From an uncultured virus (IMG/VR IMGVR_UViG_3300032167_000055) (taxonomy: Duplodnaviria; Heunggongvirae; Uroviricota; Caudoviricetes), in IMG/VR virus record IMGVR_UViG_3300032167_000055: a stretch of 64,000 nucleotides of DNA. One strand, given 5' to 3'. Below, in pieces: positions 2,879 to 17,272 of this stretch. Each line of letters begins with the position of its first letter. The stretch's first letter is position 1. The notes under the pieces were generated by a model, which saw nothing but the letters and a program-made list of their open reading frames with translations, did not search any database and was not told where the DNA came from. A program made the translations under genes and the position numbers.

Positions 2879-4798
2879 ATGCCGATTTTAGATACAGAAA
2901 AAATTTTAAATGGTACTGATACCAAGCAGATTATTCATGCATATGAAAATCTGAAGAGTCAGTATTCAGATGAAACGGCAAGAGATTATCGTACCTATTA
3001 TATTGGAAAGCCTCTTTCCTTTATAGTAAAGAACGCGAAATATATTATACCTGAACCTCAGTTTGGACTTCCTTTTGTGAGATGGGTTGCTAAGGCATTT
3101 CCTAATCCTTATCGTAATATGATTGCCATTAAGCAGTGTATCGAAGATTACTGGATGACTAATCGTGAGAAAATGCATCCTAGTATGGAAAAGATGTACG
3201 CTGATGCAGTTAACGAAATAGGATCTATCCTTAAGAGCAGATCTCCTGAAAGTGCAACTGAGATGTGTATGTTCAAGGATGATGTATCTGATGAATTCTT
3301 TGATAATTGCTATGCTGCTTTATGTAAAAAGAGACTTGAAAATAATGATGAGTGCGCAACAACTTTATTTGGTAACGATGTACCTTATGCAGGTTGTAAT
3401 GATTTTGATTCTTATATCAAGTCATGCCCTCATCAGATGAAAGTTATGTATATGACACCTTATGCAAAGGAGCTTTGTTTGGAAGGCGTTCTTTGTGAGA
3501 GTTATTCATCTATGATAAATGAGAACTCTACTGGTGGAGATAATAAAGCAACAAATCTTGTTTCGTGCGAAACTGTACAAAATCTTGTACTATCTGAACG
3601 TTTCATGGAAGCTGTAAACCAGTTTTCTAACATCCAACTAAGAACTTTGGTTAATGGAATGATTCGTGCGGATATTGCAGATGAAATTGTGACAGCATTC
3701 AAAGAAGCAGCTGAAGATACGATTAATCCTGTATATGATAGTTCCAGATCTGCAGTAAATGCGATTATGGAAGAATCCGTATTCGATGAAATGTATAAAG
3801 AAGAAAGAGCTTCAACAAAAGCTGAACTTCTTAATATGAAACATGATGTGTATGAATCTGTTAGACAGACTATTCAGAATTATTATGTGGTTCTTGAAGA
3901 AACTGATATTTTACCTGAAACTGAACTTTTCAGTGTAATTAAGGAGTCTATGGGTATTGAAGGACCCATCAGTGTAGGTGATGCATTTAAACTCATTAAT
4001 GAAGCAGTTTCTGAAGTAGAAGCAAATGAATCCTCTTTTTTTGAGAAAGCGGGGGACGGGTCTGCTAATAAGATAATTCAGAGATCACATCGTATGTATA
4101 GAGAAATTGATGAACCTGTTAAAAAAGGTTCAAATAATTCATCTAAAGATAGTGATGATGAAGATGCTTTAGAGGAAGAAGACGATGAAGCGGAACTTCC
4201 CAAGTCTACTAGGGTAGCTAGTGATGACTTGCCTGATTCTTCGAATCCTAACGCTACCAATTCTAAACCACAGAAAGTAAAAGAGGGTTTTTTGACAAAA
4301 GTTCAAAATAAAGCAATGGATGCCCATAAGAATAGTAGAAAGAATTCTGCTAAACTTAGACAAACTGGTACAGCTGTTAAAAATGCAGGTACTGCAGTTT
4401 TAAAGATTCCTGCTGGACTTCTTAATGGGTTAAAAGATATGATCCAAGGATTTGACAAGATGGATGATGATCGAAGAAAAGCATATATGATGCAACCCGG
4501 TTATAGAAAAAAGGTTATTAAGAATCTTAGAGTTGCAGCTACGTATGGTTTAGCATGGCATACTAAAAAGATGCTTATTCCTGTAGTTTGGTTTGGAAGA
4601 AAGTTATCGAAAGAAAAAAATAAGAGAATTCGTAATGAATTTGCACGAGAACTTGATACAGAAATCAAGGTAACCGAAGCTAAAATTGAAGATGCAATGG
4701 CAGCTGGTGATCAAAAACAAAGATACCAACTTATTCGTATTCGAGATGAATTAGCTAGACAGAAAGAACGTGTAAGTACTAACGGAAAATATATCTAA
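2879..4798 (+). CDS. Virion head-associated protein, 639 aa
   Basis: Lies in the capsid operon; many hydrophobic-x-E-[SAG] sites (VLCES, FMEA, FKEAA, IKES, INEA); basic helical C-terminus. Confidence 0.55.
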   Translation: MPILDTEKILNGTDTKQIIHAYENLKSQYSDETARDYRTYYIGKPLSFIVKNAKYIIPEPQFGLPFVRWVAKAFPNPYRNMIAIKQCIEDYWMTNREKMHPSMEKMYADAVNEIGSILKSRSPESATEMCMFKDDVSDEFFDNCYAALCKKRLENNDECATTLFGNDVPYAGCNDFDSYIKSCPHQMKVMYMTPYAKELCLEGVLCESYSSMINENSTGGDNKATNLVSCETVQNLVLSERFMEAVNQFSNIQLRTLVNGMIRADIADEIVTAFKEAAEDTINPVYDSSRSAVNAIMEESVFDEMYKEERASTKAELLNMKHDVYESVRQTIQNYYVVLEETDILPETELFSVIKESMGIEGPISVGDAFKLINEAVSEVEANESSFFEKAGDGSANKIIQRSHRMYREIDEPVKKGSNNSSKDSDDEDALEEEDDEAELPKSTRVASDDLPDSSNPNATNSKPQKVKEGFLTKVQNKAMDAHKNSRKNSAKLRQTGTAVKNAGTAVLKIPAGLLNGLKDMIQGFDKMDDDRRKAYMMQPGYRKKVIKNLRVAATYGLAWHTKKMLIPVVWFGRKLSKEKNKRIRNEFARELDTEIKVTEAKIEDAMAAGDQKQRYQLIRIRDELARQKERVSTNGKYI

Positions 4799-4812
4799 GG
4801 AGGTAATGACTA

Positions 4813-5847
4813 GTGATTGTAAAACATGCTAGAGAAATACCTCTTTTTGAGTCGCTTGGTATTTTTACTGAAGCACCTAAAAAGAAAAGAAAACCTAGAG
4901 TCATTTCAGTAAGACCAATTCGAAAGGATTATACATCAATGGTTGATCCGGATGAATTGATTGATATTGATGATATAGACTCTTTAGGAGATGATTTATC
5001 TGATTATGATTCACTTGATATGGATATAGGTGATGATTTAGCAGATGATGAATTATTAAATGATACACCTATAGAAGGTGACGAAGATGATTTTAATATT
5101 GGTCAAGATGACATTCCTGATGATATTGGTGAAGAACCTATAGACGGTGATGAAGAATTGCCTGATTTTGAAATTCCTGAAGATATTAGTTTTGACGATT
5201 TGACATTAGATGATGATCAAACGCAAAATGATGTACCTGCAGAAGAAATAGAATCACCAGAAGATCAAGATACATCTGATGATGACCAAACTGTTGAAGT
5301 ACCTGAAGGTGAAACTACTGATACTAGCACGGATACAACAGAACAACCTGCAGAGCAACCAGAGGGCGAACAACCTACTGAAGAAATACAAGAAGGAAAT
5401 GAAGTCATCGATGCTACTGGCAGTGAAATGCCAGAAGATATAGGTGCTGAAGTTGATATAGCTGCTGCTGATGGAACTGATTCTTCAGCTGTTAGTACAG
5501 ATACTTCGGTTGATCCTTCTGCTGGTACAGATGAAACATCCATTACAAAGGATGATATGAGAAAATATGAGTTGTTTAAGAGATTTATGAATCTTTTAAA
5601 CACAGTACAATACTTTATAGATAAATTAGAAACTGGTGTTTCTGATAATATAAAGTTTGAATATGCCGCTAATAAGGCACTTATAAAGTTCAAAGCTTTG
5701 GAAGATTTGTTAAAAGATTACATGCTTTTAAAATTTCAGAATGATAGTTTCTTACAGAACTCATTCTTTTATGAAAAAATAAAAGCATCATCACTGTTAT
5801 TACTTGAACTTATGAATTTAAATAAAATTACAAAAGATGAGAAATAA
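4813..5847 (+). CDS. Highly acidic low-complexity protein, candidate prohead scaffold/core, 344 aa
   Basis: D/E-rich disordered middle; N-terminal LFES and FTEA motifs; directly upstream of the probable capsid gene; SD AAGGAGGT. Confidence 0.5.
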   Translation: MIVKHAREIPLFESLGIFTEAPKKKRKPRVISVRPIRKDYTSMVDPDELIDIDDIDSLGDDLSDYDSLDMDIGDDLADDELLNDTPIEGDEDDFNIGQDDIPDDIGEEPIDGDEELPDFEIPEDISFDDLTLDDDQTQNDVPAEEIESPEDQDTSDDDQTVEVPEGETTDTSTDTTEQPAEQPEGEQPTEEIQEGNEVIDATGSEMPEDIGAEVDIAAADGTDSSAVSTDTSVDPSAGTDETSITKDDMRKYELFKRFMNLLNTVQYFIDKLETGVSDNIKFEYAANKALIKFKALEDLLKDYMLLKFQNDSFLQNSFFYEKIKASSLLLLELMNLNKITKDEK

Positions 5848-5951
5848 CAGTAATTTAAAATTACTTCTATTGAGGTAATAAACCTAAAACATATGTATTA
5901 TGAAACCCTTATACGTTAAACTAAAAAATAAATATAAAGGAGGACGAGATA

Positions 5952-7697
5952 ATGTCATTGGCATTTCTTGAATCTGTAAAGGATTTCAATGCAGCTACTA
6001 CTATCGGTGGTTTCAATCTCGCTAACGAAGAGAACGGTTTTGACGCTACTTTTGAAGCAGCTGTAAACGAATTAGAACAGAGTAGAATTAATTATTTCAT
6101 GGATATTGCAGCAATGATCAAGAATCCCGAGATCATGGCAGCTTTCAAGGAGAGCGCATTGTCCAGTATCAAGACTGAGTCTGATCAGAGAAGTGATGTT
6201 GATAAGTGGGGTGCATACTCCAATATGTATAACCAGGTTTCCCAGCTGTGGGATAACTGTACTGCAGACTTCGTACGTGAGTCTACTACAGTAGGTCAGT
6301 TGATGCCTATTAAGGCTATCGATTATCCTGTATTGGTTAAGCAGCATCTGTCTTTGGCTACCAAAGATATTCTTCAGACTGAAGTAACCAAGAGTCCTGT
6401 AATCAAGAAGCAGATGGAGCAGGTTTGGATTGTTGACAACCAGACTCAGGATCGTTGGAGATATCCTCAGTGCTTCTACAATGAAGATTATAAGACCATT
6501 TATGCAGCAGGTAAGGGTCTGCCTATCAAGGAAGACGTTGTTAAGCTGCCTATTTTCAATTATGATATCATCGGCAATTTGACTGATGCTGTTGTTCCTG
6601 CAAGAGAGAAGTTTACCTTCAATCTTAAGATCAAGGCAGTAGTAGCCGGCGATGTACAGATTCCTGTAAATATGTGGATCAATGTTCATACTTCTCAGTG
6701 GATGGGTGGTAACATTGATGCTAAGTATACTGACGCTGAAGGTAATGAAGTTGAAGTTAAGGATATGCTTTCCGGTAACGTTGACTTCATCAGCAACACT
6801 GTAACTCTTTCTTCTGCATCTGGTGCTGTTACCGGAGTTATCTTCGAAGGCTACCTGAGCAATGAAAAGAATGAAAGAGCCGTATCTTTCGATTACACTC
6901 GTGAAGAGCGTGAATGGAAGATTGAAGACGGTCACAGAGTAAACATCCCTTACAGCATCGAGCAGCTCGATGATGCAAAGGCTCTGCTTAATATGGATCT
7001 CTATAAGAAGACATATGATAACATGGCTGAGTACCTTACTCAGATGGAGGATTCTCAGGTTATCGACTTCTTGGATGAGCAGTTTGATCACTTTACCGGT
7101 CTTGAGCTGGATCCTCTTCAGTGGAACAGCTTTGTAAGATTTAAGGATTTCAACTGTGATTCTACAATTCAGACTGTTGCATTGCAGTCAGAGTACATCG
7201 AGAAGCAGCTTAAGTGGGAAATCGATCGTTTCATCATTGATTTGACCAATACTGCTAAGATGGAAGATTTGACTTTTGTTATCTATGGTAATCCTAAGTA
7301 CGTTTCTCTGCTTGGCAAGAACGTTAACTGGGTTCTTAACCAGGGTAGCACAACCGGCGGTATTAAGCATAACTACAGCTATGGTGTTATGACTACCGGT
7401 AATGTAAAGGTTCAGGTTGTTTCTGCACTCAAGTTTGATGAGAAGCATCCTAATCATCAGGGATTGAGAATCGTGCCTATCGCATTGAATCCTGCTCAGA
7501 TGACCTTTAAGCACTTTAAGTACAATACCCATATCCTTACTGCTAAGGACAGCGCTTACAAGGCTCCTGATCTTCCTGGCGGTTCTTACACCAACCTGAT
7601 GGGTGTATCTCGTTACACAGATGCAGCTGTTCAGGGTATCCAGGGTCTGGTAACCTTCAGCAATGCTGAGTTCATCGATTCTAGCTTCAATCGCTAA
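5952..7697 (+). CDS. Major capsid protein precursor (probable), 581 aa
   Basis: Strong highly-expressed codon bias; SD AAGGAGG; ~110-aa helical propeptide with FLES/FEAA/FKES/VRES sites; followed by a strong terminator. Confidence 0.72.
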   Translation: MSLAFLESVKDFNAATTIGGFNLANEENGFDATFEAAVNELEQSRINYFMDIAAMIKNPEIMAAFKESALSSIKTESDQRSDVDKWGAYSNMYNQVSQLWDNCTADFVRESTTVGQLMPIKAIDYPVLVKQHLSLATKDILQTEVTKSPVIKKQMEQVWIVDNQTQDRWRYPQCFYNEDYKTIYAAGKGLPIKEDVVKLPIFNYDIIGNLTDAVVPAREKFTFNLKIKAVVAGDVQIPVNMWINVHTSQWMGGNIDAKYTDAEGNEVEVKDMLSGNVDFISNTVTLSSASGAVTGVIFEGYLSNEKNERAVSFDYTREEREWKIEDGHRVNIPYSIEQLDDAKALLNMDLYKKTYDNMAEYLTQMEDSQVIDFLDEQFDHFTGLELDPLQWNSFVRFKDFNCDSTIQTVALQSEYIEKQLKWEIDRFIIDLTNTAKMEDLTFVIYGNPKYVSLLGKNVNWVLNQGSTTGGIKHNYSYGVMTTGNVKVQVVSALKFDEKHPNHQGLRIVPIALNPAQMTFKHFKYNTHILTAKDSAYKAPDLPGGSYTNLMGVSRYTDAAVQGIQGLVTFSNAEFIDSSFNR

Positions 7698-13258: not shown

Positions 13259-13300
13259 AGGATTGTCTTGCAGGTTTTACCCTGTGAGTCAATCCTTTTT
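13259..13300 (+). terminator. Intrinsic terminator
   Basis: AGGATTGtCTTGCAGG...CCTGTGAGtCAATCCT followed by a T run. Confidence 0.75.
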
Positions 13301-13400
13301 ATACCCAAATAAAAAGTTATGTAAATCGGCTTTTATTTTTTGAAGAAATAACTTTTAATGATTTATTATTTATATGAAATAATGGAAAGGAGAACATCTT

Positions 13401-14594
13401 ATGCTACCGTTTTTAAAAGACTTCGTAGGAGATTATGAAGACGAATTAAACGTGGATTTAATGACTAAGTCAGCAGATGGTGAACTTGTTGACTATGTTG
13501 TTGACTCATGGAAATCACTGGAAGTAGTAAAGTACATTAAGTTCTTAGGGTATGAATTTAATACTAGAGAATCAACGATTGATATTAATCGCCATATTTT
13601 CAAACGTAATAAAAACGTTCCCAAGAAATATCAGTACGACTACAAATTGATCAATGATGATAGAGTAGGACTTCTTACAGTTCATCTATTAATCAGTATT
13701 ACAGAAAAAGACCCTAAGACAGGTCAGGAAAAAGTTAGGGAGAAAGTAATCAACAAAGATATGCTTATTCCTCTTGAAGATGATGATGGATATCTTTTCA
13801 TCAATGGAAGAAAGTATTATATGATTTACCAGCTTCTTGAAAAGTCTACATATACGACTTTAACATCGACTGTTATTAAGTCACTTATGCCAATCGTAAT
13901 TAAACGTGTACCTTGTGTACATGAAGATGTAGATGGTAAAGGATATATGTTACCACTCTTTAGAACTTTTGTGTTCCATAGAGAGACTGATGTAATGCTG
14001 TTTGTAGCAGCAAACTTTGGTATTGAATATGCCTTGATCTACCTTAAGGTAGATTCAATTATTCATTTAATTCCAAATCTTGACAATCGTAGAGATGATT
14101 GTTTATATTTCCAGGTTTCATCCAAATGTTATTTGGAAGTAAATGAGGAAATGTTTGAGAAGTGGAATTATGTGCAAGCGGTTGTAGCAGGATTCTTAGA
14201 GATTCTTACAAATCGTTTTGATTTATCTCAGATTGATAATACTGAGAACTTCATTAAGAAACTTACTCCATCTAATACAGTTGAAAAAGGTATGGATACT
14301 TTAACATCATTCAATCGTATGCTCGATGAAACGACAAGAAAGATTTTAAAGATTGATGATTACCATAAGAAAGATGTCTATGCTATTATCAGATGGGCTA
14401 TGATGGAATTTAATCAGCTTCGTATGAAAGATAACTTGTCTCTTGAAAATAAGAGACTACGTTGTTATGAATACGTAGCATCATTACTTACACAAGAATT
14501 TAGTACACGTTTGAATCGTATTATTAACATGGGTGCTAAGGTAACACTTGAAAATATATGCGACATTTTCAAATTCCCTGGAACCCTTCTCATT
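13401..14594 (+). CDS. RNA polymerase beta subunit, N-terminal half, exon 1 (spliced product ~576 aa: 13401-14594, 15260-15339, 16318-16774)
   Basis: GYLFINGRKYYMIYQL matches the beta GxFIING.ERV...QL motif; the frame continues across two introns into beta region D. Variant early promoter TTTATTAT at 13362-13369. Confidence 0.88.
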
Positions 14595-15259
14595 TAACAC
14601 AATGGGTGAGAATAAACCTCTTTAATTGCGGGGACATAATCAATGACACTTACTTACTAAACTAAGATAGTAATATACTTAGTGGCAATGGGTAACTCCA
14701 AAGGTATAGTAAAAAGAGTAAGTTAAGATATAATCCGCAGCTAATTATCTATTCGTTACAAAAAATAAAAGGAGTTAATATATGGGTAATAATATAAAAG
14801 ATAAAATACAAGAATCATTAGGAAATATATTAGTTTCAGAACTTGATGAAGAATTGCAGTATAAAGTAATCAAGATGTTTAGATTAAATAATGAAACAGA
14901 TAATGCAATTTTTCTAATGAAAGAAGGTCATCTAATAATATTAACTGATTTAAAAGAAACACCTTATCATTTAGATAAAGATTTTAATGTAGACCCAAAT
15001 GGAGAAAGAACTGTTACATCATTTAAAGATGTTATAGTTATAGACGAATCCCCAATTACAGGTTTATTAATTGAAGCAATACGAAATAATTAATTTAAAA
15101 CGAATAGATACAAGTTCAACGACTATCGAAAGGGTAGCTATAGAGAAATACTATAGTGAGTAACCAAGTAGAGTAGGAAGTAATTCCGAAATGGGAGGCA
15201 TTTTATATTTGATAAAAGAATATAAAATGAAGATATAGTCTAATTGATTAAATCAATTG
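14595..15259 (+). mobile_element. Group I intron 1, 665 nt
   Basis: P1 TTCTCATT/GGTGAGAA with a U.G pair; begins with an in-frame TAA; P4 TTGCGGGGA/AATCCGCAG; P7 TCAACGACTAT/AAGATATAGTC; P9 hairpin then terminal G at 15259. Confidence 0.92.
14782..15093 (+). CDS. Intron-encoded hypothetical protein with no homing-endonuclease motif, 103 aa
   Basis: SD AAGGAG; looped out by the 12-bp stem TATCTATTCGTT/AACGAATAGATA. Confidence 0.7.
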   Translation: MGNNIKDKIQESLGNILVSELDEELQYKVIKMFRLNNETDNAIFLMKEGHLIILTDLKETPYHLDKDFNVDPNGERTVTSFKDVIVIDESPITGLLIEAIRNN

Positions 15260-15339
15260 CAGAAGATGCATGTTTCAGGAATTTTGCGCTTCAACGAGTG
15301 TATTAATGATATGACATTCTTTAACAAATTTAAATGGAC
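15260..15339 (+). CDS. RNA polymerase beta-N exon 2, 80-nt micro-exon
   Basis: Encodes QKMHVSGILRFNECINDMTFFNKFKW(T), aligning with bacterial SQFMDQTNPLSELTHKRRL. Confidence 0.88.
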
Positions 15340-16317
15340 GAAAGGCTTGTCCCGAAACACAGTAATGTGTTGGAAAAACCTATCTAACTGCGGGAACGTA
15401 TCCGTAGTATATATTTACTAAACTAAGATAGTAATATACTTAGTGGCAATGGGTAACTCCAAAGGTATAGTAAAAAGAATATATACTGATATAATCCGCA
15501 ACGAAGCAACCATTTCATTCAATTTATAATGAATGAAAGAAGGTGAATCATATAGGAAAGAATAGAGGAAATATACCTAGAATAAATAAGAAAGGTGAAA
15601 TATGGGTTCCATTAGTTTATGAAGATATTCGTGAAGGTATGTATGAGATTAGTAATAAAGGACGAATTTATTCTATAAAATCTGATACAATTTTGCGACC
15701 AATTAAGAAACATAATGGATACTATAGAGTTAATCTTTCATCGAAGAAAAAAGGTAAACAAAAAGAATACTCCATTCATAGATTAGTAGCAATTCATTTT
15801 ATACCATTACCTGAAGGATATACTTTAGAAGAACTTCAAGTTAATCATAAGAAGGGTGATAAAAGTAAAAATGGTGCTAAAGATTTAGAATGGGTAACAT
15901 CATCTGAAAACATAAAGCATTCTATTGCTATGGGATTACAAAAAATACGTTATGGTGATGAATCTAATAATCATAAATATGATAGTGATTTGGTTAGACG
16001 TATTTGTGTTAATCTTGAAATGGGATATTCAACTAAAGAAATAATAAAAAGACTTAAGTTGGATCCTAAAGCAGAGAATTTAATTAGGCGTATTAAAGAA
16101 AGACGTCATTGGACAGATATTTCTGATGATTATTATTTCTACTAACTATATGAATGAAATGGTTGTGTGTTCATCGACTATCGAAAGGATAGCTATAGAG
16201 AAATACTATAGTGAGTAACCAAGTAGAGTAGGAAGTAATTCCGAAAAGGTAGGCTCCAATATAATGGTAATAGTTATGTTGGATGATGATATAGTCAGCA
16301 TCAAAATATTTGATATG
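15340..16317 (+). mobile_element. Group I intron 2, 978 nt, with HNH endonuclease
   Basis: IGS GCTTGTCC is complementary to the ligated junction GGAC|AAGC; P2 AACACA-gtaa-TGTGTT; P3 CCTATCT/AGGTAGG; P4 CTGCGGGAA/AATCCGCAA; P7 TCATCGACTAT/ATGATATAGTC; terminal G at 16317. Confidence 0.92.
15543..16145 (+). CDS. HNH homing endonuclease with NUMOD4-like N-terminus, 200 aa
   Basis: YEISNKGRI (NUMOD4), GYYRVNL, HRLVAIHFI, QVNHKKGDKSKN..DLEWVTSSENIKH, C-terminal HTH. Confidence 0.92.
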   Translation: MNHIGKNRGNIPRINKKGEIWVPLVYEDIREGMYEISNKGRIYSIKSDTILRPIKKHNGYYRVNLSSKKKGKQKEYSIHRLVAIHFIPLPEGYTLEELQVNHKKGDKSKNGAKDLEWVTSSENIKHSIAMGLQKIRYGDESNNHKYDSDLVRRICVNLEMGYSTKEIIKRLKLDPKAENLIRRIKERRHWTDISDDYYFY

Positions 16318-16774
16318 AAGCAAAGGTCCACATTCATTAGGGCGCAAGAATAGTAATAACATTTCCGCTAAATATAGAGGATTACACCCGTCATTTATTA
16401 GTGAGTTCGATTTGTTAACTTGCGGCAACAGTGACCCAGGTACGAGCGGGATTCTTTCCCCGTTCAGTAAGATTAAAGGTCTCTATTTTAATAACGATGG
16501 AGAACCTGATTTCTTCCTAACAGAATTTGTTAAGGATATTAATCGTTTGATTAAGAAAGAAGGTCACGAATGTATTGAAATTGAGTTCGAGACCAAAGAA
16601 GAGTATTATGAAATTATGAACTATGTAGAGCATTTCCTTGATAACGACATTGTCGCATATGGAGTATTCAGGGATAAACCTGCAGTTATTTTCCAGCGTG
16701 AACCTGATATGATTGCTGAACATGAAACAGGCGAAGTCACAACGGATTATGAGGATACTGAGGATGATGAGTAA
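16318..16774 (+). CDS. RNA polymerase beta-N exon 3
   Basis: SKGPHSLG...YRGLHPSFISEFDLLTCGNSDPGTSG corresponds to beta LGPGGL...[20 protein letters not shown]. Confidence 0.88.
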
Positions 16775-16789
16775 TCATCATCCTCTTAT

Positions 16790-17272
16790 ATGAAAGGAGT
16801 AAAACCAATGGAAGTATTAAAATTGATTTTTGACTTCTTACTTAAATTAGCAGATGGGCATCAGGGATTAGTGGTATGGTTTGTTATACTTTTCTCATGT
16901 CTTTCTGTGATTATATTATTCTTGTTAGTATGTCAAGTATTTGGGTTGTTTAAATCCATTGAAAGATATCTGCTTGAAAATAAGGAACTTAACACAAAAA
17001 GAAATATTTACCACCGATTTTCTGAAATTGCAAGAAGTGCTCAGCTTGCCGGTGGTTATGTTGAAGCATCTAATATCATGGCACAGTGTGCATTGGTATT
17101 ATTTGGTAAAGTCCAGGCGGATAATGAAAAAGATATTATTGGAGATGATAAGAATGCAAGACCAAAATCAGATGTTTCAAGGAGTGAAGAATCCGTTTCA
17201 AGGGAAAGTGGACAAGGTTCTGATAGAACTTCCGATGGTCCCAAAGAATCTTACGCTAAAGTTACGGATTAG
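16790..17272 (+). CDS. Membrane protein, 160 aa (start may be 16808)
   Basis: Long hydrophobic segment; SD GAAAGGAG before 16808. Confidence 0.6.
   Translation: MKGVKPMEVLKLIFDFLLKLADGHQGLVVWFVILFSCLSVIILFLLVCQVFGLFKSIERYLLENKELNTKRNIYHRFSEIARSAQLAGGYVEASNIMAQCALVLFGKVQADNEKDIIGDDKNARPKSDVSRSEESVSRESGQGSDRTSDGPKESYAKVTD

Follow-up and report, generated by a model that had tools for sequence, protein, structure and literature searches.

The RNA polymerase (RNAP) genes of jumbo phages, those of phage AR9 included, are described as often being split by at least one intron, as are terminase and gyrase genes, and the positions of these introns vary between close relatives (bioRxiv 10.1101/2020.12.14.422802). 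A locus of this kind was found in a stretch of 64,000 nt from an uncultured virus (IMG/VR record IMGVR_UViG_3300032167_000055), referred to below, at its full length, as the window. At positions 13401-16774, on the plus strand, like every feature of this locus described below, the gene encoding the N-terminal portion of the beta subunit (beta-N) of a non-virion RNA polymerase (nvRNAP) is interrupted by two inserts, which flank an exon of 80 nt. We conclude, with a probability of about 0.85, that two self-splicing introns of one family split this gene, that the sequence blocks shared by the two introns arose by gene conversion, and that splicing of the second intron takes place at a 5′ site with a C-G pair. 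The source of the window is an AR9/PBS1-like jumbo phage of approximately 279 kb, whose own record (G001; 278,849 bp) is rated complete.

The interrupted gene and its uninterrupted relatives

Joining of exon 1 (13401-14594, 398 codons), exon 2 (15260-15339, 26 codons and 2 nt), and exon 3 (16318-16774, 1 nt, 151 codons, and a stop) gives 1731 nt, consisting of 576 codons and a stop codon with no internal stop. This three-part join had been proposed in a preliminary description of the locus, made from the sequence alone, and was found to be open and exact to the base, including the 80-nt exon.

By homology, the interrupted gene is that of an AR9-type nvRNAP beta-N subunit (gp105), in agreement with its first identification. 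A tblastn search with exon 1 matched 19 phage records, which without exception are jumbo phages of Bacillus, Staphylococcus or Listeria, with vB_BspM_Internexus (E = 6e-37) and AR9 (E = 9e-37; 28.5% identity, 95% coverage) as the top matches. The AR9 match is g105, which is annotated as the non-virion RNAP beta subunit N-terminus. Exons 1 and 3 both matched phrog_2943, “polymerase” (E = 9e-17 and 2.9e-4, respectively), exon 3 was also located by tblastn in relatives, and the continuous exon of a relative matched chain c of the solved AR9 polymerase (PDB 7S00; E = 9.3e-51, residues 12-466). The spliced product aligned end to end with its counterparts in AR9, SA1, and LPJP1, with no gaps over either junction, and exon 2 is gapless against AR9 gp105. 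In a family profile, the exon 2 segment and the start of exon 3 aligned to the bacterial beta stretch SSQLSQFMDQ...RRLSALGPGGL...HPSHYGR with an E value of only 0.019. We take this stretch to be the one named region D, and at that E value the earlier placement of the junctions in conserved beta region D fits roughly. Megablast, run with the entire region as query on 50,697 phage records, returned no match.

A scan of IMG/VR retrieved six loci, one identical to the window, four at 87% (L023, L024, L025, and L027), and one at 79% (L026). In all five non-identical metagenomic relatives, the gene is continuous over residues 398/399 and 425/426. Comparison with intronless homologs had been named beforehand as a test that could refute the reconstruction, and the five relatives were found to carry the reconstructed junction residues, ...PGT[I/L]LIQKMH... 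and ...FKWTSKG[P/E]HS.... All donor/acceptor pairs around the two introns that keep the frame and contain no stop (332 pairs for intron 1, 496 for intron 2) were also scored against the uninterrupted relatives L023 and L026. For intron 1, the pair 14594|15260 scored highest, with a U at position -1 and a G closing the intron. Three placements tied for the best protein at intron 2, among which a G-ending intron was obtained only with 15339|16318 (score 425). The best fully canonical alternative, 15348|16318, scored 399 and inserted three residues. The originally proposed junctions, CTCATT|CAGAAG and TGGAC|AAGCAA, are thus supported both by the uninterrupted relatives and by the splice-pair scan, and they define intron 1 as 14595-15259 (665 nt; U14594 at -1, omega-G15259) and intron 2 as 15340-16317 (978 nt; C15339 at -1, omega-G16317).

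Evidence for a group I core

Because Rfam scores remained below threshold, the case for group I identity rests on comparative structure, for which 15 introns of one family were collected from three genomes (G001, G002, and G003). P3 is fully paired in 14 of the 15 introns, with 10 distinct strand pairs, and P4 is found in two versions that compensate for each other, UGCGGG/UCCGCA and UGCUGG/UCAGCA. A P6 duplex spans an insert of 30-966 nt in every member of the set, each duplex having a different sequence, and P8 is represented by 10 distinct stems around a conserved loop. Covariation was tested on a MAFFT alignment (A2) of the 3′ halves, using the structure P7, P7.1, P7.2, and P8 and 500 shuffles; MAFFT misaligns the P5 stems of these introns. 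In the 3′-half alignment, 91.6% of the cells were paired, compared to 72.7% in the shuffles and 35-44% in slid controls, and 20 of the 27 pairs had changed on both sides. The observed values were reached by none of the 500 shuffles. RNAalifold, applied to four family members that lack an open reading frame (ORF), independently recovered P3, P4, P6, P7.1, P8, and P9.

Both introns contain the J8/7-P7 motif GAUAUAGUC and an omega-G, and two covarying hairpins, P7.1 and P7.2, lie between P7 and P3′. Extra hairpins P7.1 and P7.2 at this position define subgroup IA, and the sequences of both introns point to an IA-like fold. That the two inserts have a group I core, as was first suggested, is supported by the covariation over 15 introns, by omega-G, and by the frame that is restored upon their removal; both would be expected to self-splice.

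Several observations count against this assignment. At the gathering level, Rfam gave no group I match in the entire window. A permissive search with RF00028 gave 17.6 bits for intron 2 (E = 0.17, 16171-16313) and a partial match of 11.7 bits for intron 1 (E = 9.7, 15200-15254), relative to a cut-off of 50, so that the recommended Infernal check with a group I model yielded partial, sub-threshold matches only. A sister intron in the terminase gene scored 15.6 bits with the same model. P7 is nearly invariant, with one compensatory change among the 15 sequences, and P1, P2, and P10 are manual pairings that have no covariation support.

Anatomy of the two introns

P1 of intron 1 (14587-14612), read manually from the sequence, would consist of 8 bp, formed by the exon sequence UUCUCAUU (14587-14594) and, as internal guide, GGUGAGAA (14605-14612), placing a canonical U14594·G14605 wobble at the 5′ splice site. 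P2 is absent. According to the P3/P4 pair tables, the 5′ core (14617-14739) contains the 5′ strand of P3 (14617-14622), P4 (14627-14632 with 14734-14739), and a P5 extension that includes a 64-nt block shared with intron 2 (14654-14717). The 3′ core (15121-15259), drawn from the family structure tables and covariation, comprises P7 (15121-15126 with 15235-15240), P7.1 (15138-15143/15151-15156), P7.2 (15176-15179/15184-15187), P3′ (15193-15198), P8 (15199-15229), P9 (15242-15258), and omega-G15259. In sequencing run X7, a population variant has both U15202C and A15226G, which compensate for each other in P8.

The two halves of intron 1 are separated by a P6a stem (14746-15110; 14746-14762 paired with 15094-15110), which was detected in the repeat search as a 17-nt inverted repeat with 88% complementarity and encloses an orphan ORF of 103 aa (14782-15093). 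This ORF had no significant match in Pfam (best E = 0.11, below cut-off) and none in PHROGs. A search of 5.8 billion proteins, confined to lengths of 56-181 aa, returned a single homolog with 97% identity, and scores in the ESM Atlas did not exceed 0.81, which is the chance level. Comparison with the HNH ORFs of the family by hhalign gave a probability of 0.2%, setting the ORF apart from the HNH group, and the single-sequence AlphaFold 2 model had a predicted local distance difference test (pLDDT) score of 41.9, too low for a fold search. In a variant contig, six of the eight nucleotide differences within the ORF are synonymous, which suggests that it is a real gene.

In intron 2, the region 15336-15371 was likewise paired manually. 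Exon GGAC (15336-15339) would pair with GUCC (15349-15352) to form P1, with C15339-G15349 at the splice site; GCUU (15345-15348) would pair with AAGC of exon 3 (16318-16321) to form P10; and P2 would be a hairpin at 15356-15371 with a GUAA loop. The pair tables place the 5′ strand of P3 at 15379-15384, P4 at 15389-15394 with 15495-15500, and the second copy of the 64-nt block at 15415-15478, all within a 5′ core of 15379-15500. A P6a stem (15507-16165; 15507-15521 with 16151-16165), an inverted repeat of 15 nt with 100% complementarity in the repeat search, encloses an ORF of 200 aa (15543-16145). The ORF matched NUMOD4 in Pfam (E = 2e-10; 41.2 bits, cut-off 23.4) and phrog_59, HNH endonuclease (E = 6e-35), while HNH_3 scored 19.7 bits, below its cut-off of 24.8; its product is a predicted HNH-type homing endonuclease with a NUMOD4 motif. 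The 3′ core (16176-16317), based on the family structure tables and the partial Rfam match, contains P7 (16176-16181 with 16291-16296), P7.1 and P7.2 at the intron 1 positions offset by 1055, P3′ (16248-16253), P8 (16255-16283), P9 (16300-16314), and omega-G16317.

Shared blocks and exchange among family copies

The two introns share a 64-nt identical block (14654-14717 and 15415-15478), in which the identity extends 0 nt to either side, and a 72-nt block (15120-15191 and 16175-16246) with a single mismatch (G15134 versus A16189) and no extension. Both blocks had been reported before and proved exact to the base. The same repeats were found in an independent repeat search as D1 (118 nt, 83% identity) and D2 (86 nt, 95%), and a 43-nt piece of the shared sequence occurs twice in the window, compared with an expectation of 0.00 from 100 shuffles.

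BLAST searches with the conserved blocks revealed at least five copies of the family in the phage's own genome, with the 3′ core found at five places (E <= 1e-33): the two introns of the window, two introns in the large terminase gene (I3 and I4), and one in a second RNAP beta gene. At least eight copies are present in G002, an 87% relative, and at least two in G003, one of which is its beta-N intron. The preliminary description of the window introns as sisters is too narrow for a genome with at least five copies.

The relationship between the copies differs from module to module. From P7 to P3′, introns 1 and 2 are 95% identical and mutual nearest relatives, the terminase introns I3 and I4 form a similar pair at 99%, and the mean identity is 87% among the five copies of this genome, compared to 73% between G001 and G002. 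From P8 to P9, introns 1 and 2 share only 46% identity, which in the matrix of all 15 introns is the lowest value in the row of intron 1 and the joint lowest in that of intron 2. In this segment, intron 1 is nearest to I4 and to the G002 copy G002_268k (73%), and I3 is nearest to its positional ortholog in G002 (84%). The sequences of P3, P6, P8, and P9 are unrelated between the two introns; the differences originally listed, namely P1 with its internal guide, P2, and cargo, are real, but the list was too short, as P3 and P6 differ too. In the terminase intron I3, 62 nt of the 64-nt P5 block are unchanged, and the copies of this block in other genomes show 2-7 differences, a part of which are compensatory. 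Identity among the HNH ORFs of the family is only 27-43%, the intron 2 ORF being 33-43% identical to those of I4 and I5.

The origin of the shared blocks had been put down to recent intron duplication or to ongoing gene conversion. A recent tandem duplication of one intron, followed by retargeting of the guide and replacement of the cargo, would leave blocks that have not yet diverged, and the two blocks themselves, the 95% identity from P7 to P3′, and the similar pair in the terminase gene are in keeping with such an event. It is nevertheless an unlikely origin, given the low identity from P8 to P9, where intron 1 is closer to I4 and G002_268k, the unrelated P3, P6, P8, and P9 sequences, and the P5 block that is equally unchanged over 62 nt in I3. 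Moreover, all five relatives lack both introns yet carry others, and therefore the two insertions need not be linked. Gene conversion is favored because the region from P7 to P3′ is 95% identical, whereas that from P8 to P9 is only 46% identical, and the shared blocks are best read, from the sequence comparisons, as conversion patches between neighboring copies rather than as remnants of a recent whole-intron duplication. Some modules appear to be homogenized within the genome, most of all between neighbors in the same gene, and others have their own history, a pattern in better agreement with gene conversion or module exchange. This reading is weakened in that selection on the core sequence could partly explain the high identity of the blocks.

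The 5′ splice site of intron 2

A U·G wobble pair is present at the 5′ splice site of intron 1 and absent from that of intron 2. The 5′ splice site was placed in seven family introns, four of them anchored by uninterrupted homologs and three by P1 pairing and reading frame only; six have a U·G pair, and intron 2 is the only one with C-G. C15339 is the middle base of a Thr codon, and this Thr is shared by the close relatives and by AR9 and SA1, though LPJP1 lacks it. Because C15339 is the second base of a conserved Thr codon, a U would be unavailable at position -1 of intron 2. Reverse-complemented, the 8-nt guide GCUUGUCC of intron 2 reads exactly as the ligated junction GGAC|AAGC.

The C-G pair departs from the conserved U·G splice-site rule, and this departure speaks against the proposed site. 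The U-1·G22 pair is described as conserved and required, and in the Tetrahymena ribozyme, P1 with C-1·G22 was found to undock approximately 80-fold faster (PMC1891724). An engineered Anabaena intron was reported to tolerate a pyrimidine (“YNN”) at the -1 place (PMC12355055). Given the Tetrahymena rule (PMC1891724) together with the tolerance of the Anabaena intron (PMC12355055), the C-G splice site of intron 2 is unusual but plausible. A literature search for natural group I introns with C at -1 returned only mechanistic papers.

Intron 2 might instead use a canonical U, with the exon ending at U15348 and joined to 16318, which would lengthen exon 2 to 89 nt and add three residues. This site provides the best combination with both U at -1 and omega-G (score 399) and obeys the conserved U·G rule (PMC1891724). 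It is quite unlikely to be used, as the junction at the C site scored 425, the three added residues are found neither in L023 and L026 nor in the alignment with AR9, SA1, and LPJP1, which has no gaps, and no guide complementary to the exon end AGGCUU was found in the intron's 5′ portion, whereas GCUUGUCC fits GGAC|AAGC exactly.

Two further candidates were examined and set aside. Splicing of the terminase intron I3 after a C was rejected, since, when it was compared with its G002 ortholog, P1 (ACGUG/CGCGU) proved to be conserved and the site to be a canonical ACGU|. A connection between the GUCC guide of intron 2 and the GUGUCCC guide of an intron at a relative's DPGT site was dropped, as the two introns are dissimilar (69% from P7 to P3′ and 46% from P8 to P9).

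With the C-G site preferred, a more far-reaching proposal can be framed, to which we give even odds: intron 2 would be a natural ribozyme that cleaves at a Watson-Crick C-G pair, locked in place by the Thr codon and retargeted through its guide, and the shared blocks would mark ongoing gene conversion. Such an intron may have originated by retargeting of a family member, with a new 8-nt guide placed before the present P2. If this is true, and if splicing at the C-G site is slow, it could time the assembly of the nvRNAP and hence the switch from early to late transcription, and the identical blocks would reflect ongoing gene conversion that homogenizes the ribozyme modules of neighboring introns within one phage genome.

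Assembly, coverage, and RNA

Parts of the stretch were found in 20 sequencing runs, two of which were RNA runs (shares of 0.09 and 0.05); all known occurrences of the phage are in metagenomes of gut or faecal origin. Contigs of the DNA runs X1 and X7, which belong to different studies, cover 30 of the 30 bins of 13401-16900. Single contigs bridge the 3′ end of intron 1, exon 2, and the 5′ end of intron 2 in both runs (X1 record 6, 15171-15441, with 0 differences; X7 record 28, 15120-15444), although X1 or X7 may be the sample behind the window assembly. The DNA contigs end at the repeat blocks, and short-read graphs therefore cannot place the ORF-bearing middle segments in the introns. This behavior would be expected if the layout were an assembly artefact, a misjoin or collapse caused by the repeated intron blocks, and the repeat order A..B..A..B would allow the middle segments to be swapped without any change in the k-mer graph. 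An artefact is very unlikely, however, as two runs from different studies each contain a bridging contig, the identical layout is present in two IMG/VR contigs, and the conserved protein is incomplete without exon 2. In addition, the P3 strands, which lie outside the repeats, pair within each intron (CCUCUU/GGGAGG and CCUAUC/GGUAGG) and would be mismatched if crossed. No joint that skips 761 or 1055 nt was seen in the DNA contigs. It had been pointed out that recombination between the repeats would delete exon 2, which is a sound inference.

The metatranscriptome runs X19 and X20 had zero depth on all exon bins and were thus uninformative on splicing, so that no RNA evidence for it was obtained. 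Only conserved intron blocks are covered in these runs, with many loose ends, and their contigs are therefore attributed to related introns elsewhere. A 188-nt contig of X20 joins a part corresponding to window positions 16242-16296 to a part corresponding to 15351-15381; it contains a family 3′ core with five differences from intron 2 and, tens of bases on, a family P2-P3 segment. This contig could stem from a circular form, or from a related phage in which two introns likewise lie in tandem.

That the inserts do not splice at all, the gene being a pseudogene or having been fragmented by mobile endonuclease cassettes into separate polypeptides, is scarcely credible: no spliced RNA was seen, in RNA runs with zero exon depth, and a natural division of RNAP subunits into separate genes is described for jumbo phages (PMC7598289), but an 80-nt piece is implausible as a separate subunit, the covarying ribozyme core ends in omega-G, removal of the inserts restores the frame exactly, and the same layout recurs in runs of several studies and is therefore maintained.

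Other introns in this phage and its relatives

Together, the window and its relatives contain four intron sites in a span of 70 codons, in the part of the protein that is conserved most. In L023, an intron of 1105 nt with an HNH ORF (6403-7507) follows GGGACAU at T467/S468, with a U·G pair, and in L026, an ORF-less intron of 448 nt (6393-6840) follows UCUGAU at D464|P465, with a canonical U·G pair. Both window introns are absent from these two loci, and exon 3 of the window is uninterrupted at D464|P465 and T467/S468.

Elsewhere in the phage genome, the large terminase gene (L020, G001:164500-174500; approximately 3103-7130) is split by I3 (approximately L020 3927-4606) and I4 (core at L020 6415-6693). 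The P6 loop of I3 (L020 4100-4350) has no ORF; it holds approximately 250 nt with a G+C content of 47-50%, compared to approximately 30% for the genome. This stretch had no Rfam match at E <= 1, and its fold was no better than those of shuffled sequences (z = -0.27). The HNH ORF of I4 (L020 5586-6407) is located upstream of the core, ahead of P3, whereas other ORFs of the family are located in the P6 loop. The second RNAP beta gene (L021, G001:151500-159500, minus strand, approximately 4790-3587; Rpb2_6 domain, phrog_3295) is split within the region of the RFGEFE motif by a family intron with an HNH ORF of 309 aa. In G002, near 80 kb, an intron at approximately L039 1940-2460 has a 5′ layout like that of intron 1, with a P1 loop resembling AACACAAU and no P2. 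Its guide differs from that of intron 1, and it has the CAUCGAC variant of intron 2 ahead of P7 and a similar P9.

Upstream of the beta-N gene, just past the stop codon of the preceding ORF, an inverted repeat (AGGATTG...CAATCC) is followed by a run of T (13261-13305). It looks like an intrinsic terminator ahead of the gene, and was not listed by a simple scan. The early-promoter motif of AR9 is ATATATTAT at the two annotated sites of AR9, and no exact counterpart of it was found upstream of 13401. A sigma-70-style scan gave 15 sites, compared to 21.8 in shuffled sequences, which is fewer than chance, and no promoter claim is made.

Proposed explanation and its consequences

In the proposed explanation, each intron would fold as a P1-P9 ribozyme and remove itself through two guanosine-initiated transesterifications, as group I introns typically do, and the three exons would be ligated into a single mRNA of 576 codons. 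Intron 1 would use a canonical U·G site and carry the orphan 103-aa ORF in its P6 loop; intron 2 would use the C-G pair, with an extra P2 hairpin and the HNH/NUMOD4 ORF in P6. Exon 2, the sole sequence between the introns, would encode part of the most conserved stretch of the protein. Members of the family, with at least five copies in this genome and at least eight in a relative, would swap sequence modules. The gp105 of AR9 is produced from an early gene, and it is the nvRNAP that has to read late promoters (PMC5312081). By homology with this role, late transcription would depend on both splicing events; this dependence, also anticipated in the preliminary description, is a sound inference.

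Because the Rfam model misses its threshold here, this essential polymerase gene would come out of annotation pipelines as a truncated gene or as three ORFs with no relation to one another. Read correctly, it encodes a complete nvRNAP beta-N subunit. The clade provides a compact data set on the spread and remodeling of group I introns (15 introns, three genomes, and four sites), and it holds both intron-free and intron-bearing alleles. Intron 2 is a candidate for a naturally occurring departure from the U·G rule at splice sites, and one accessible to testing in vitro.

Comparison with known systems

The closest described systems are AR9 and the Staphylococcus MarsHill-like phages, which belong to the same phage group and have an nvRNAP of the AR9 gp105 type; in these phages too, introns are described in RNAP subunit genes and in the large terminase gene. 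The present locus differs in that g105 of AR9 is annotated as one continuous coding sequence, and none of the relatives examined has an intron at 398/399 or 425/426. An intron with an HNH endonuclease reportedly sits in an RNAP gene of the jumbo phage PhiPA3. The PhiPA3 intron resembles intron 2 in bearing an HNH homing endonuclease and acts in competition between co-infecting phages (Science 2024, PMC11620839), while PhiPA3 itself differs as a nucleus-forming Pseudomonas phage with a single intron.

Short exons between introns, an arrangement in which exons may be skipped, have precedents in other phages. In phage Twort, three similar group I introns interrupt one gene, with short exons between them and with exon skipping (PMC3073962), although the phage family and the gene are different. 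In the Bastillevirinae, phage introns of IA type were described, most of which carry a homing nuclease in a loop; two introns flank a small exon in the reductase gene of phiNIT1, and an internal exon is skipped in the terminase of SIOphi (NAR 2025, PMC11878797). The host genes in that case are polymerase, terminase, and reductase genes and not those of a multisubunit RNAP, and the term “wobble” was not found in that paper (PMC11878797). Introns in jumbo-phage RNAP genes are already known, and the features of note at the present locus are the C-G splice site of intron 2 and the module-wise homogenization of the intron copies.

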